A DNA stretch of 64,000 bases. It comes from Methanocaldococcus sp. 28A (lineage in GTDB: Archaea; AGJL01; Methanococci; Methanococcales; Methanocaldococcaceae). Location of the stretch: NCBI GenBank assembly GCA_049852185.1, contig CP187540.1; one strand, written 5' to 3'. The notes below the pieces were generated by a model that saw only the letters and a list, made by a program, of their open reading frames with translations, had not been told where the DNA came from and searched no databases. Positions 41,220-58,654 of the stretch are shown piece after piece; position 1 is the first letter of the stretch; every line of letters starts with the position of its first letter. Both the position numbers and the translations under genes were made by a program.

Positions 41220-41419
41220 AATACTATCTTGAGGAGGAATATAAAAAGAATTTAAAAAAAGAAGAAAAATGGAAATTCGATTTTAAATTCCAAACTAATA
41301 CATAAAATGCGAAAGTCCTATTATTAGATGAGTTCGATTATTCAATCATGGTTATGCGTAATACTCGGTTGTGTATGCTTAATGTATATATTTATATATT
41401 CGTAGATACTGGTATTATA

Positions 41420-43309: not shown

Positions 43310-43343
43310 TAAAAAAATAATAAAAAATAAATATGTGGTTTTT

Positions 43344-44405
43344 ATGCTTCCAAACAAAAAAGCTTTAGAAATTATTAGAAAGTATATGAAAATTTACAAT
43401 GGAAATAATGAAGAGAACATTAAAGAGAATATAATTAGAAAGTTAAAAGAAGAAAAGGTTTTAGTAGAAACTGAAGATGGAACTTATACATTAAAGGCAG
43501 ATGATGATGAAGAGATGATGCATTCAAAGGTTGGAGCTTTAAAAGAAGCAATCTATAAGTTTGCAAAGCCCTCAAAAATTGAAAATTTAAAAAATCCGAG
43601 AGTTTTAGATTTATGTAGCGGTTTAGGATATAATGCTATAGCCGCTTTACATCATAATAAAAATGCAGAGATTGATATGGTTGAAATCTGTGAAGAAGCT
43701 TTATTTTTAACTTTATTTTTAGATATCCCATATAAAGAGCATGAGATTATAAAAGATAAGGTTAGAGAATATTTTTTAAACAAAATTGGCATTGAATATA
43801 ATTCTCCTTATAATAACATCAATCTATATGTTGGAGATGCGAGAAAATATATAATAAAAGGTGATAAAAAATACAACATAGTTTTTCACGATGCATTTTC
43901 ACCAAAGAGAGACCCTACTCTCTATACTTACGATTTTTTGAAAGAAATTTATAAAAGAATGGAAGATAATGGAGTTTTGGTATCTTACTCTTCATCTATT
44001 CCTTTTAGAAGTGCTTTAGTAGATTGTGGTTTTGTAATTTCAGAAAAAGAAAGCATAGGAAGAAAGAGAGGAATAACATTAGCATATAAAAACCTAAATT
44101 TTAAACCAGATAGAATTAATGAGATTGATGAAAGAATTATAGCTTTATCAGTTATAGCACTACCTTATAGGGATAAAAACTTAAATTTAACTAAAGATAA
44201 AATAATAGAGGATAGAGAGAAAAGGAGAAAAAAGTTAAAAGAAAATTTAATTAAAATAGGAAAATATCTATCAACAAAACAAATAAAAAAAGGAAATATT
44301 CCAGAAGAAATTTTAAATATCCAAAAGGAAGATTTAAACTCATCAGAGATTATTAAAAAGATGAGAAGAGAATTTTTCAAAGATGCAAACATTTTTATAC
44401 TATAA
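43344..44405 (+). CDS. MnmC/MnmD-like SAM-dependent methyltransferase
   Basis: TEDGTYTL, MHSKVGA, DLCSGLGYN, HDAFSP; the ORF track starts at 43335. Confidence 0.85.
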   Translation: MLPNKKALEIIRKYMKIYNGNNEENIKENIIRKLKEEKVLVETEDGTYTLKADDDEEMMHSKVGALKEAIYKFAKPSKIENLKNPRVLDLCSGLGYNAIAALHHNKNAEIDMVEICEEALFLTLFLDIPYKEHEIIKDKVREYFLNKIGIEYNSPYNNINLYVGDARKYIIKGDKKYNIVFHDAFSPKRDPTLYTYDFLKEIYKRMEDNGVLVSYSSSIPFRSALVDCGFVISEKESIGRKRGITLAYKNLNFKPDRINEIDERIIALSVIALPYRDKNLNLTKDKIIEDREKRRKKLKENLIKIGKYLSTKQIKKGNIPEEILNIQKEDLNSSEIIKKMRREFFKDANIFIL

Positions 44406-44479
44406 ACCCATAGTTGTTGAGGATGCTAAAATCTCTTTTTAGCATCTTTAAAAATGAATTTTATAAGGAAGTGGAATAT

Positions 44480-45667
44480 ATGAATTTTAGTGAATTAAAT
44501 TTATCAGAGAATATTTTAACAGCCATTAAAAATAAAGGTTTTGAAAATCCAACAGATATCCAAATGAAAGTTATCCCACTATTTTTAAATGATGAAGGTA
44601 ATATTGTAGCTCAAGCAAGAACTGGAAGTGGTAAAACTGCAGCATTTGCAATTCCATTAATTGAACTCATCAATGATAGGACTTTTGCACATTATATATG
44701 TAGTAATGAAAATATGATGCCAAAGGCATCAAATATGCCTTCTAATATTTATACCTACGAAAGTCCTATCAATGAAAACAATGGAATAGAGGCAATAATT
44801 TTAACCCCAACAAGAGAGTTAGCTATACAAGTGGCTGATGAAATAGAATCATTAAAAGGTAACAAAAATTTAAAGATTGCCAAAATTTATGGAGGAAAAG
44901 CCATTTATCCACAAATTAAAGCTTTAAAAAATGCTAATATAGTTGTTGGAACACCTGGAAGGATTTTAGACCATATAAACAGAGGAACTTTAAACCTAAA
45001 AAATGTTAAATACTTTATATTGGATGAAGCTGATGAAATGCTCAATATGGGATTTGTTGAAGATATAGAGAAGATTTTAAATGCTTGTAATAAAAATAAG
45101 AGAATTTTGTTGTTCTCTGCAACTATGCCAAAGGAGATATTAAACTTAGCTAAAAAATATATGGGAGATTATAAGTTTGTAAGAGCTAAAATATATGCAA
45201 ATATTGAGCAAAGCTATATAGAAGTTAATGAACATGAGAGATTTGAAGCTTTATGTAGATTATTAAAAAATAAAGAATTTTATGGATTGGTTTTTTGTAA
45301 AACTAAGAGAGATACGAAAGAATTGGCAAATATGTTGAGAGATATTGGATTTAAAGCTGGGGCAATTCATGGAGATTTAAGTCAATCCCAAAGAGAGAAG
45401 GTTATAAGGCTTTTTAAACAAAAAAGAATTAAAATTTTAATTGCTACTGATGTTATGAGTAGAGGTATAGATGTTAATGATTTAAACTGTGTAATTAACT
45501 ATCATCTCCCACAAAATCCTGAATCTTATATGCATAGGATTGGAAGAACTGGAAGAGCGGGAAAAAAAGGAACGGCAATATCAATTATCAATAGAAAAGA
45601 GTACAAAAAATTAAAATATATAGAGAGAACTATGAAGTTAAAAATTAGAAAATTAAAATTTAAATAA
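44480..45667 (+). CDS. DEAD-box ATP-dependent RNA helicase carrying a 33-aa in-frame MITE-derived insertion
   Basis: Q motif, ARTGSGKT, PTRELA, DEAD, SAT, HRIGRTGR. The ORF track starts at 44414; the ATG at 44480 is more likely. Confidence 0.95.
   Translation: MNFSELNLSENILTAIKNKGFENPTDIQMKVIPLFLNDEGNIVAQARTGSGKTAAFAIPLIELINDRTFAHYICSNENMMPKASNMPSNIYTYESPINENNGIEAIILTPTRELAIQVADEIESLKGNKNLKIAKIYGGKAIYPQIKALKNANIVVGTPGRILDHINRGTLNLKNVKYFILDEADEMLNMGFVEDIEKILNACNKNKRILLFSATMPKEILNLAKKYMGDYKFVRAKIYANIEQSYIEVNEHERFEALCRLLKNKEFYGLVFCKTKRDTKELANMLRDIGFKAGAIHGDLSQSQREKVIRLFKQKRIKILIATDVMSRGIDVNDLNCVINYHLPQNPESYMHRIGRTGRAGKKGTAISIINRKEYKKLKYIERTMKLKIRKLKFK
44676..44769. mobile_element. MITE family A (IS701-derived ends) inserted in frame in the DEAD-box helicase gene
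   Basis: ATAGGACTTTTG...CGAAAGTCCTAT ends flanked by duplicated CAATG (ATCAATGA at 44669 and 44768, 99 bp apart). Confidence 0.9.
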
Positions 45668-45830: not shown

Positions 45831-46838
45831 TTAACAAACTCTTGGTATAGGGTCTCCTATTGGCATATCGACTATTCTCCTTCCTACAATTGTTTCCATT
45901 ACAACCCCTTTATGTTCTTTTGTAGCATAGCCAATAATTTCAGCATTTCTACCTAATGGATGTTCTCTCAAAATCTCTAAACATCTTTCAGCATCTTCCT
46001 TTTTAACAGCCATAACTACCTTTCCCTCATTAGCTATTGTTAAAGGGTCTAGACCAAGGATATCACAAATTGACTGAACTTCATCACTTATTGGAATGTT
46101 GTCCTCAAAGATAGTTATCCCTATATTGCTCTTTTCAGCCATCTCATTTAACGCATCTGCTAAACCTCCCCTTGTAGGGTCTTTCATTGCATTTATTTGA
46201 ATTCCTTCTTCTAAAACCTTCTCAATCATTTTATTTATTGGGGCCACATCTGACTTTATATTTGTTTCAAAATCAAATCCTTCCCTTGATAATAGAATAG
46301 CTAATCCATGCTCTCCTATATTTCCAGAGACAATTATTGCATCTCCCTCTTGAACATTACAATCTCTAATAGCTTTACCTCTATCAACAATCCCTATTCC
46401 AGCAGTTGAAATAATGATATCATCTACTCCATCAGATACTTTTGTATCTCCTGTTACTATTGCTACTTCTGCCTCTTTAGATGTCTCATTTATTGATTTA
46501 ATTATTTTCTCTAAATCCTCTAAGTTAAAACCCTCTGGAATGATTAAAGATAGAGATAGAGCTAATGGCTTAGCTCCCATAACTGCTAAATCATTTACAG
46601 TCCCACTAACAGCCAATCTGCCAATATCTCCGCCTGGAAAAAAAATAGGTTTTACAGTATGTCCATCAACGGTAAAGACAATCTCTTTATCTCCTATTGG
46701 GATAGTTGCTGAATCATCTAAGCTTTCTAACCCAATTCCTCCATTAACTGATGTTATCTCTAAATTTTTCAATATTACATCTTTTATAAGTTCCTGCATT
46801 ACCTTTCCTCCAGCTCCATGCATTCTTGTGATTTTCAT
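45831..46838 (-). CDS. hypE: Hydrogenase maturation protein HypE
   Basis: HGAGGK, GTVNDLA, GDTKV, DPTRGG, C-terminal PRVC. Confidence 0.97.
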   Translation of the reverse strand: MKITRMHGAGGKVMQELIKDVILKNLEITSVNGGIGLESLDDSATIPIGDKEIVFTVDGHTVKPIFFPGGDIGRLAVSGTVNDLAVMGAKPLALSLSLIIPEGFNLEDLEKIIKSINETSKEAEVAIVTGDTKVSDGVDDIIISTAGIGIVDRGKAIRDCNVQEGDAIIVSGNIGEHGLAILLSREGFDFETNIKSDVAPINKMIEKVLEEGIQINAMKDPTRGGLADALNEMAEKSNIGITIFEDNIPISDEVQSICDILGLDPLTIANEGKVVMAVKKEDAERCLEILREHPLGRNAEIIGYATKEHKGVVMETIVGRRIVDMPIGDPIPRVC

Positions 46839-56395: not shown

Positions 56396-56486
56396 ATAGG
56401 ACTTTCGCGGGTATAGATATTAGGAGTTTTGCATCATTTCTTCCTTATTTACCTTAATATAATTAAATAATGTGCGAGAGTTCTAT
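56396..56486. mobile_element. MITE family A copy
   Basis: ATAGGACTTTCG...TGCGAGAGTTCTAT flanked by TTTAA on both sides; internal similarity to the reverse complement of 44676-44769. Confidence 0.8.
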
Positions 56487-57519: not shown

Positions 57520-58654
57520 ATAGGACTTTCGCATCCACATTTAAATACTTAGATTAACGATAAACCAATTTCTTCACACAAAGAGATTATGGCATTACCA
57601 ACAGCTATTCGATTTAGTTTTCTTCTAAGTTCGTACCAACTGATATTTTTATCGATTCTAATTTTCTCTAAGAGGTAGAAGGCTCTCATAGAAAGGGAGA
57701 TATGACCTAAAATTGGAAATTTTTTTCTAACGAAGAAATTGCCAGTATTACAGCACTGTTTAACACCCCTATGGAATTCCTCGATTCTCCAAGAGGCGTT
57801 TTTGACCTCTTGGAATTCTTCGAAACTCATAAATAGGTTATTAGTTATATAATATTTTGCCTTTCCGTTTTTGGAAAGGCAGAAGAGTCTGACATAGCCA
57901 ACTTTTCGTAGATAAACGATTAATCCATTCTTAGGAATTTCCTTAAGGTCTTCGATTGATACCCACTTTCCGTTTTTGGAGAGTTTTATCTTTCTATTCT
58001 TTTTAATTCTGCAGAGGTAGAATAAACCTAAACTATCGATAAGTTTTAAGTTATCTTTACTTGAATACCAACTATCGAAACAGATATATCTAATATTTAA
58101 TCCTTTATCCACTAAAGACTTTATTATCTCCCTACATAAATTATTTTTCGTCTTTCCATCTCTTGGTCTGTCATATACTCTAAAATCGATTGGAATAATA
58201 TGTTTTCCATTTGTAATTATGCAATCAACGATATGTATGCCTTTAATTACTCGTTTATGTAGATTACTCCAACAATAATAAGCAAATTCAGTCGATTTAG
58301 AGTAAATTTTATCTATAACAAAGTCATCTATAACGACAATATTATAATCAGGAGTGATTAAATCTTTAACGAAATTAAAAAGCTTTTCTTGTGGGAAGAT
58401 TCCTTCTTCCCAAAGTATTCTATTTATTGTATCGTGAGATATGTCGATTCCGAAAATACGCAACGTTTTCGATAACTCTACACACGAATTAATCTCTGAA
58501 AGTAATATAAAAAGCATATAAACGATAGTCCTCGACATTTTTAGCATATTTTCCCCAAAATAAACTTTTGTTTCGAAAAATTATAATATCTAATAAAAAT
58601 AGATTATCATAAAATATTATAATAAAATATTTAAATATGCTTGCAAAAGTCCTA
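57520..58654 (-). mobile_element. IS701-family insertion sequence, apparently intact
   Basis: Inverted ends ATAGGACTTTCGCA / TGCAAAAGTCCTAT; one intact transposase. Confidence 0.9.
57549..58547 (-). CDS. IS701-family DDE transposase
   Basis: VVIDD, ICFDSWY, WRIEEFHRGVKQ. Confidence 0.92.
   Translation of the reverse strand: MLKMSRTIVYMLFILLSEINSCVELSKTLRIFGIDISHDTINRILWEEGIFPQEKLFNFVKDLITPDYNIVVIDDFVIDKIYSKSTEFAYYCWSNLHKRVIKGIHIVDCIITNGKHIIPIDFRVYDRPRDGKTKNNLCREIIKSLVDKGLNIRYICFDSWYSSKDNLKLIDSLGLFYLCRIKKNRKIKLSKNGKWVSIEDLKEIPKNGLIVYLRKVGYVRLFCLSKNGKAKYYITNNLFMSFEEFQEVKNASWRIEEFHRGVKQCCNTGNFFVRKKFPILGHISLSMRAFYLLEKIRIDKNISWYELRRKLNRIAVGNAIISLCEEIGLSLI

Follow-up and report, generated by a model that had tools for sequence, protein, structure and literature searches.

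Short palindromic repeats that lie within protein-coding genes and leave the reading frame unbroken have been described from both archaea and bacteria. Coding palindromic elements are known from Methanocaldococcus jannaschii (Suyama, Lathe and Bork 2005, FEBS Lett 579:5281), a work cited for in-frame insertion in protein genes in the part of PMC2229807 drawn on here and, in the passage used from PMC2996958, for in-frame insertions in housekeeping genes. The Rickettsia palindromic elements (RPE; Ogata et al. 2000) likewise sit in frame in conserved genes, where they add an extra peptide to a host enzyme that apparently still works, as the portions of PMC2229807 and PMC10969869 used here describe them; these bacterial elements measure about 100-150 bp, have no identified transposase and show uncertain target duplications (PMC2229807, Table 1). 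Here we describe a miniature inverted-repeat transposable element (MITE) lying in frame within the DEAD-box RNA helicase gene of Methanocaldococcus sp. 28A, in a 64,000-nt stretch of its genome (the window). The M. jannaschii elements of Suyama and colleagues reportedly number 141 and fall under the names MJRE1-3, with three in-frame MJRE2 copies. At our locus we consider that the MITE inserted in frame, that the messenger RNA (mRNA) is read through it and that the product is a helicase of 395 residues, 33 of which form an unstructured loop while the core is otherwise unchanged; the probability of this reading we put at roughly 0.8. The insertion, its repeat family, its link to an insertion sequence (IS), its absence from relatives, the open frame and the constraint on the rest of the gene are all observed here.

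A MITE copy inside the DEAD-box helicase gene

The window corresponds to C1:1472001-1536000 of the organism's own genome (G000; 1.556 Mb in two contigs, 99.94% completeness). The features of the helicase locus are listed below by window position.

44480..45667 (+): DEAD-box RNA helicase gene, the MJ0669 orthologue with the insertion; 395 codons plus stop, open reading frame (ORF) 44414/44480-45667
44670..44676 (+): first copy of the target-site duplication, TCAATGA; direct repeat, present as a single copy at the empty site of relatives
44677..44768 (+): the 92-bp MITE, translated as (D)RTFAHYICSNENMMPKASNMPSNIYTYESP; nhmmer E = 4.9e-22, model positions 1-93
44677..44689 (+): left terminal inverted repeat TAGGACTTTTGCA, read from the sequence; the left end of the IS is TAGGACTTTCGCA
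44715..44731 (+): central palindrome TGATGCC-AAA-GGCATCA, conserved in the family by alignment of copies; inner hairpin in the RNA fold
44756..44768 (+): right terminal inverted repeat TACGAAAGTCCTA, read from the sequence
44769..44775 (+): second copy of the target-site duplication, TCAATGA; direct repeat

The octamer ATCAATGA is present at 44669-44676 and again at 44768-44775, a spacing of exactly 99 bp, together with an inverted pair, ATAGGACTTT (44676-44685) and AAAGTCCTAT (44760-44769), whose arms reach 16 nt at 94% complementarity. The best parse is a 92-bp element, TAGGAC...GTCCTA (44677-44768), with a 7-bp duplication of TCAATGA; the eighth base of the repeat is the element's last A, which equals the base preceding the first TCAATGA copy. 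Of the 13 positions of the terminal repeats TAGGACTTTTGCA and TACGAAAGTCCTA, 11 are complementary. Element and duplication (92 bp + 7 bp) add 99 nt, or 33 codons, and the reading frame is kept. The helicase element has the marks of a MITE, being small and without a transposase gene, bounded by inverted ends and a target duplication, and part of a multicopy family whose ends are common to an IS.

Both Pfam domains of the helicase are intact (DEAD, E = 1.8e-49; Helicase_C, E = 4.5e-36), and motifs Q, I, Ia, II (DEAD), III (SAT) and VI, which are invariant in the orthologue alignment, are all kept. The insert is placed between motif I (AQARTGSGKT) and motif Ia (PTRELA), where the ORF runs stop-free as ...LIELIND RTFAHYICSNENMMPKASNMPSNIYTYESP INENNG.... 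A preliminary description of this DNA had claimed the exact repeat 99 bp apart, the inverted ends and the 33 stop-free codons, as well as a position between motif I and motif Ia, the helicase motifs being intact; sequence and profile match (E = 4.9e-22) bear out the former, alignment and both Pfam domains the latter. This is the single DEAD-box gene of its genome, the next matches being large superfamily 2 (SF2) helicases at E = 5.8e-11 and weaker. The best match of solved structure is PDB 1HV8 (E = 2.1e-214), the M. jannaschii protein MJ0669. It aligns in two stretches (query 1-67 with chain 5-71, query 98-395 with chain 69-366) and leaves about 30 query residues unmatched; outside the insert, identity to MJ0669 is about 92%. 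A protein record (NCBI source) gives precisely this 395-aa product in full. Its predicted tryptic peptides across the insert include TFAHYICSNENMMPK, and the predicted junction peptide ends ...ESPINENNGIEAIILTPTR.

The insert is a feature of this genome alone among those compared. Orthologues of the helicase were found in 14 of the 16 other genomes of the family (protein search, E ≤ 1e-60), with best alignments that all begin at query residue 98-105, and none of these 14 genus orthologues carries the insert, nor does 1HV8, just as had been anticipated for MJ0669 and others. At the insert site relatives read ...LIEL(V/I)NENNGIEA... or close variants, and their DNA is an empty site with one target copy (...ATC/GTC AAT GAA AAC AAT GGA...). 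Within the 90% protein cluster (13 members) the insert occurs solely in the window's protein, the other 12 being without it, and it was found in none of the nine proteins matched by residues 40-125 in a search of 5.8 billion protein clusters (best identity 64%). Elsewhere in the genus the differences in loop length range from -2 to +1 residues.

Could the insert be an artefact of assembly, a repeat copy misplaced in the helicase gene? For this speak the 84 loci of the repeat and the public sequencing runs found, none of which holds the window allele. Nevertheless we regard such an error as extremely improbable: the copy is unique, at most 85% identical to any other in the genome; it is flanked by a perfect local target duplication, which misassembly would not create; and the genome is in just two contigs at the completeness given above.

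The helicase gene lies between a gene for an S-adenosylmethionine-dependent methyltransferase upstream (43335-44405, +; Pfam Methyltransf_30) and one for an AIR-synthase-related protein downstream (45831-46838, -; AIRS and AIRS_C domains). Neither is tied to the MITE by anything found.

The repeat family and its IS701-family partner

Three further features of the window belong to the same family.

57521..58654 (-): autonomous IS701-family insertion sequence, 1134 bp, with terminal repeats as in the MITE; transposase gene 57549-58547 (-)
56397..56484 (-): intergenic copy of the MITE family; nhmmer E = 1.4e-6 (C1:1528397-1528484)
41309..41321 (+): lone terminal repeat GCGAAAGTCCTAT, remnant of a family member; from the 10-mer scan, with a weak nhmmer match (E = 0.54)

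A BLAST search of the own genome with the 91-bp MITE core gave 44 matches at E ≤ 10, and an nhmmer family profile, for which 15 full-length copies were used, detected 135 distinct loci at E ≤ 1 and 84 at E ≤ 1e-3, with 63 near full length. The helicase copy scores E = 4.9e-22 against this profile and is therefore no chance match. Among the 16 relatives the family was found in five (E ≤ 1e-5). Its consensus has 13-nt inverted ends, TAGGACTTTCGCA ... TGCGAAAGTCCTA, and the central palindrome TGATGCC-AAA-GGCATCA; compared with the ends of the IS, it agrees at 13/13 positions on the left and 12/13 on the right. When the 10-mer of the element ends was sought in the window with at most one mismatch, 18 matches were obtained against 10.7 expected, a number reached by 2 of 100 shuffles, so that the enrichment is mild. 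Six matches are exact, namely the two ends of the helicase element, the MITE start at 56396, the IS ends at 57520 and 58646, and the lone end at 41312.

The IS transposase is a 332-aa protein that scores 293.6 bits against the NCBIfam IS701 model NF049921.1 (cut-off 250) and matches the Pfam families DDE_Tnp_2 and DDE_Tnp_1. The earlier observation that an IS701 element and an intergenic MITE at 56396 have the same ends thus stands, with the IS placed at 57521-58654 and the MITE at 56397-56484. Nine full-length IS copies with 98.7-100% identity, that of the window among them, and six fragments are present in the own genome; the near-identity of the nine points to a recent burst of this element. 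MITE copies are 71-89% alike, and for this reason most of the MITE activity looks older than the present IS burst. Visible target duplications are 5-8 bp long in MITE-sized and IS-sized copies alike. From the shared ends and duplications we infer that the MITE would have been mobilised by the resident IS701-family transposase.

The copies closest to the helicase MITE reach 85% identity in the own genome and 87-89% in the nearest other genome, G014. We considered dating the insertion by the distance to its nearest paralogue (11%, against 3.7% between orthologous copies) and rejected the value as a lower bound, because it dates the last shared ancestor of the copies and not the insertion.

Reading frame, protein and transcript

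The course of events that we propose begins with a 92-bp non-autonomous derivative of the resident IS701-family IS, which would have transposed into the sole DEAD-box helicase gene. Insertion at TCAATGA would have duplicated these 7 bp and so added exactly 99 nt, and the element would have landed in the sole stop-free orientation and phase of six, such that no stop interrupted the gene. Translation most likely passes through the element without a break, and the product would carry 33 unstructured residues as a loop that links the helix behind the P-loop (motif I) to the strand into motif Ia. The gene would have survived because the element happened to fall in the one tolerable phase and orientation and because the length of element plus duplication is divisible by three.

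Indeed, the helicase copy is stop-free in one of its six frames, which is the frame in use. Elsewhere, 46 of the 84 family loci are without any open frame, 17 of 61 near-full copies are free of stops in the equivalent frame, and several copies in G014 are likewise stop-free; the nearest copies translate similarly, as ...NENMMP(K/L)ASNMPFN(I/V)YT(Y/C)ESP. Judged from the copies compared, the open frame is a trait of the subfamily and was not visibly gained after insertion.

An AlphaFold2 model of the helicase, made from an 18-sequence alignment, has a mean predicted local distance difference test score (pLDDT) of 82.7 and a predicted template modelling score (pTM) of 0.73. Residues 68-100 are modelled as coil between helix 52-63 (after the P-loop) and strand 105-108 (into motif Ia), with a pLDDT of about 32, a value that speaks for absence of predicted structure and not for tolerance. 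The model matches 1hv8_A, an open-form crystal, at E = 5e-53 and a template modelling score (TM) of 0.64, and the closed RNA-bound structures of DbpA, eIF4A and eIF4AIII at TM 0.84-0.88. The preliminary description had placed the peptide in a surface loop; the model agrees with a loop between two core elements, which may lie at the surface. Insertions between motif I and motif Ia occur in human proteins as well, with 10 additional residues in DDX3, some 150 in DDX42 and, in DDX1, a SPRY domain of around 240; that of DDX3 contributes to nucleic-acid binding, according to the parts of PMC3093405 and PMC4555926 used here. The site between the two motifs is therefore a known permissive one: these enzymes, as the same parts describe them, are active with insertions at the same place in RecA-like domain 1. 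Unlike the helicase insert, which is a MITE peptide of a single genome and predicted to be disordered, the DDX insertions are described there as conserved and structured or functional (SPRY in DDX1, a nucleic-acid-binding patch in DDX3). By analogy with DDX3, the inserted loop of the window's enzyme could conceivably alter RNA binding. As for the origin of the human insertions, we know of none that is traced to a transposon.

A number of points weigh against a translated and working 395-residue enzyme. A floppy loop of 33 residues may be costly in a hyperthermophile, and the strong RNA hairpin predicted for the element could impede translation. The window allele was in no public sequencing run found, none containing more than 10% of the sampled words. 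Contigs of four hydrothermal-vent runs (two DNA, two RNA), with alleles of 88-95% likeness and 5-13% difference from the window, bridge the site without the element; since they are divergent and occur in DNA runs too, we take them for the empty sites of relatives. Two genomes of the genus, G010 (99% complete) and G015 (96% complete), are without a helicase orthologue. The helicase is therefore dispensable in the genus, and a broken gene could persist. Finally, private amino-acid changes number four in the G000 protein against two and three in its two nearest relatives, a difference that is not significant.

These observations bring in the possibility that the insertion is real and the gene functionally dead or dying; the open frame would then be a mere survivor of a fairly recent hit in a dispensable gene, and the protein with the insert would be unstable or inactive at growth temperature. 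Besides the two species without the helicase, this view draws on the absence of the window allele from the public runs found and on the lack of a close source copy from which to date the element (best 85% in the own genome, 89% in G014). Openness alone is weak evidence against it, for one in six random placements of the copy would stay open. However, the frame is intact over 395 codons with no later stops or frameshifts, and all conserved motifs are kept. With the insert removed, the ratio of non-synonymous to synonymous substitution rates (dN/dS) between G000 and G014 is 0.070 (23 synonymous and 7 non-synonymous differences, dS 0.118), a value that pools both lineages since their split and does not isolate the time since insertion; at about 0.07 it is as in other species pairs, the comparisons with four other species giving 0.062-0.077. 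The 48 nt directly upstream of the insert differ from G014 at five synonymous and no non-synonymous positions. Such figures show purifying selection on the rest of the helicase gene, which argues against decay, and we consider a dead or dying gene unlikely. From the sequence we infer instead that the peptide would be made and tolerated, and that the enzyme is probably still active.

Another way to spare the enzyme the extra loop would be to cut the 99 nt out of the transcript, for instance through the archaeal splicing endonuclease acting on a bulge-helix-bulge, which would leave an ordinary short loop. The insert region is predicted to fold into a long stem formed by the inverted ends and the near-palindromic duplication (-38.9 kcal/mol at 37 °C, z = -5.5). 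This hairpin of element and duplication joins both junctions, and excision of any 99-nt register within the 8-nt repeat would restore the ancestral sequence. The motif of the endonuclease consists of two 3-nt bulges separated by 4 bp. In both the minimum-energy and the centroid fold, however, the stem is continuous with a single 1x1 mismatch, and no bulge-helix-bulge, that is no pair of 3-nt bulges 4 bp apart, was found in them. A search of Rfam with 44300-45100 gave nothing above threshold, only four chance matches (E 0.39-0.91). One RNA contig does skip exactly 99 nt, but 16 of its 169 positions differ from the window and similar short alleles occur in DNA runs, so that it represents the empty site of a relative and not a spliced product. 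Removal at the RNA level, which the preliminary description had offered as an alternative, is thus very improbable. Removal as an intein or otherwise at the protein level was rejected by reasoning from length, a 33-residue transposon copy being far too short.

Related genomes and known systems

The two closest relatives of the helicase, that of G014 and protein P0001, differ from it at 7 and 9 of 354 compared residues, and both are longer by four residues at precisely this place (IDDKNNENHK in G014, INDKNNENNG in P0001). In the DNA of G014 (locus G014:C1:748444-752337) the helicase loop reads ATTGATGA-TA-AAAA-CAATGA-AAAC, with 12 extra nt that keep the frame, where G000 has ATCAATGA-TAGG...CCTAT-CAATGA-AAAC. 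These 12 nt resemble both target copies plus the first two bases of the element (TA) and filler. We tentatively suggest, at somewhat short of even odds, that the insertion predates the split from G014 and P0001 and that these would have lost the element imprecisely, leaving an in-frame excision footprint. Alternatively, a 9-nt tandem duplication together with 3 further nt would account for these 12 nt, and a slippage-type origin of this kind fits with the length variation of the loop elsewhere in the genus.

As a test of the footprint, the first 400 kb of G014 were compared with G000. There are 29 MITE loci in this part of G014, 14 of which have both flanks mapped in G000; six are valid shared orthologous copies, and the other mapped loci comprise six that are absent from G000, one ambiguous 23-nt gap and one candidate that does not align as a true shared copy. 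In the other direction, 11 of the 84 loci of G000 could be placed in this part of G014, six of them shared. Orthologous MITE copies are 93-100% identical (pooled, 490/509), and many MITE copies predate the split of G000 and G014, since 12 mapped sites are common to both, a point in favour of the footprint. Where a site is occupied in one genome only, four are cleanly empty in the other, two keep a few bases beginning with TA, and the rest are too diverged to read. Three mapped G000-only sites are clean empty sites in G014, which speaks against the footprint. At C1:939804-939883, G000 has an 80-bp MITE and G014 has TAAAATAA(A) alone between the same flanks, and this may be a second imprecise loss. 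If the excision reading is true, repeated MITE insertion followed by imprecise loss gives rise to loops of different length in archaeal proteins, and a working helicase long carried the 33-residue peptide; the possible footprint in sister strains offers a testable route from transposon traffic to variation in protein loops.

A scan of the genome for further in-frame copies had been proposed. None was found in the own genome, where no other copy among the 84 loci lies in an open frame longer than 111 aa. The related genome G005 does have a copy of the MITE family in frame, in a gene for a 513-aa polyferredoxin with many 4Fe-4S domains, between two ferredoxin-like units.

G005:C1:1251120-1251217 (-): in-frame MITE in the polyferredoxin gene (locus G005:C1:1249000-1253500); found with the inserted peptide, DNA match E = 5.1e-10

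This insert lengthens the protein by 31 residues, read in the element frame that is also used in the helicase, and is absent from 13 of 15 other aligned orthologues, the remaining two (G008 and G016) having a 6-residue insertion there. The extra residues of these two polyferredoxins, at the loop that in G005 holds the MITE, read KDKDRK..NN..K. Separately, a MITE of G014 within a 418-aa open frame (G014:C1:908403-908501, -) was rejected as non-coding, for it directly precedes, on the upstream side, the likely ATG (MNIFVEV...) of a gene some 350 aa in length (locus G014:C1:906500-910500); here the frame could be a miscalled N-terminal extension, or the copy could have a promoter effect.

The copy in the polyferredoxin gene of G005 probably belongs to the published M. 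jannaschii cases. No described case in methanogens had been known to the preliminary description; the elements of Suyama and colleagues (2005) in M. jannaschii and the in-frame polyferredoxin copy set this aside. No mention of Methanocaldococcus was found in the part consulted of a 2024 review of prokaryotic MITEs (PMC10969869). The helicase insert is a new example of a kind described in this genus in 2005, and the phenomenon is not new.

What the helicase adds is a clean experiment of nature. The structure of an orthologue that shares about 92% identity with it outside the insert is solved (1HV8), and the window's enzyme has a 33-residue transposon-derived loop, in a hyperthermophilic methanogen that grows near the upper temperature range for life. 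A comparison of the two proteins would tell how much unstructured insertion a thermostable RecA-like domain tolerates, and whether RNA binding is changed by a loop between motif I and motif Ia, as in DDX3.

To conclude, we compare this locus with the systems that it most resembles. Archaeal bulge-helix-bulge introns are alike in being short intervening sequences in archaeal genes with a length that is a multiple of three; unlike them, the helicase insert has no predicted motif at its junctions and is a transposon copy with a target duplication. The MJRE of M. jannaschii, as represented in the parts of the citing papers used, come nearest: they are short palindromic interspersed repeats of the same genus, some of them in genes with the frame unbroken. 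Host gene and genome differ, and the likeness is drawn from those citing papers. Unlike RPE, the helicase MITE is bounded by clear inverted ends and a target duplication, and its genome also holds an autonomous partner IS. That partner places it with the IS701-family elements, for the partner transposase passes the family model and the MITE has the terminal 13 nt of the IS and duplications of 5-8 bp. The coding palindromic repeats of Methanocaldococcus are in this way tied to an identifiable and apparently active IS701-family transposase.

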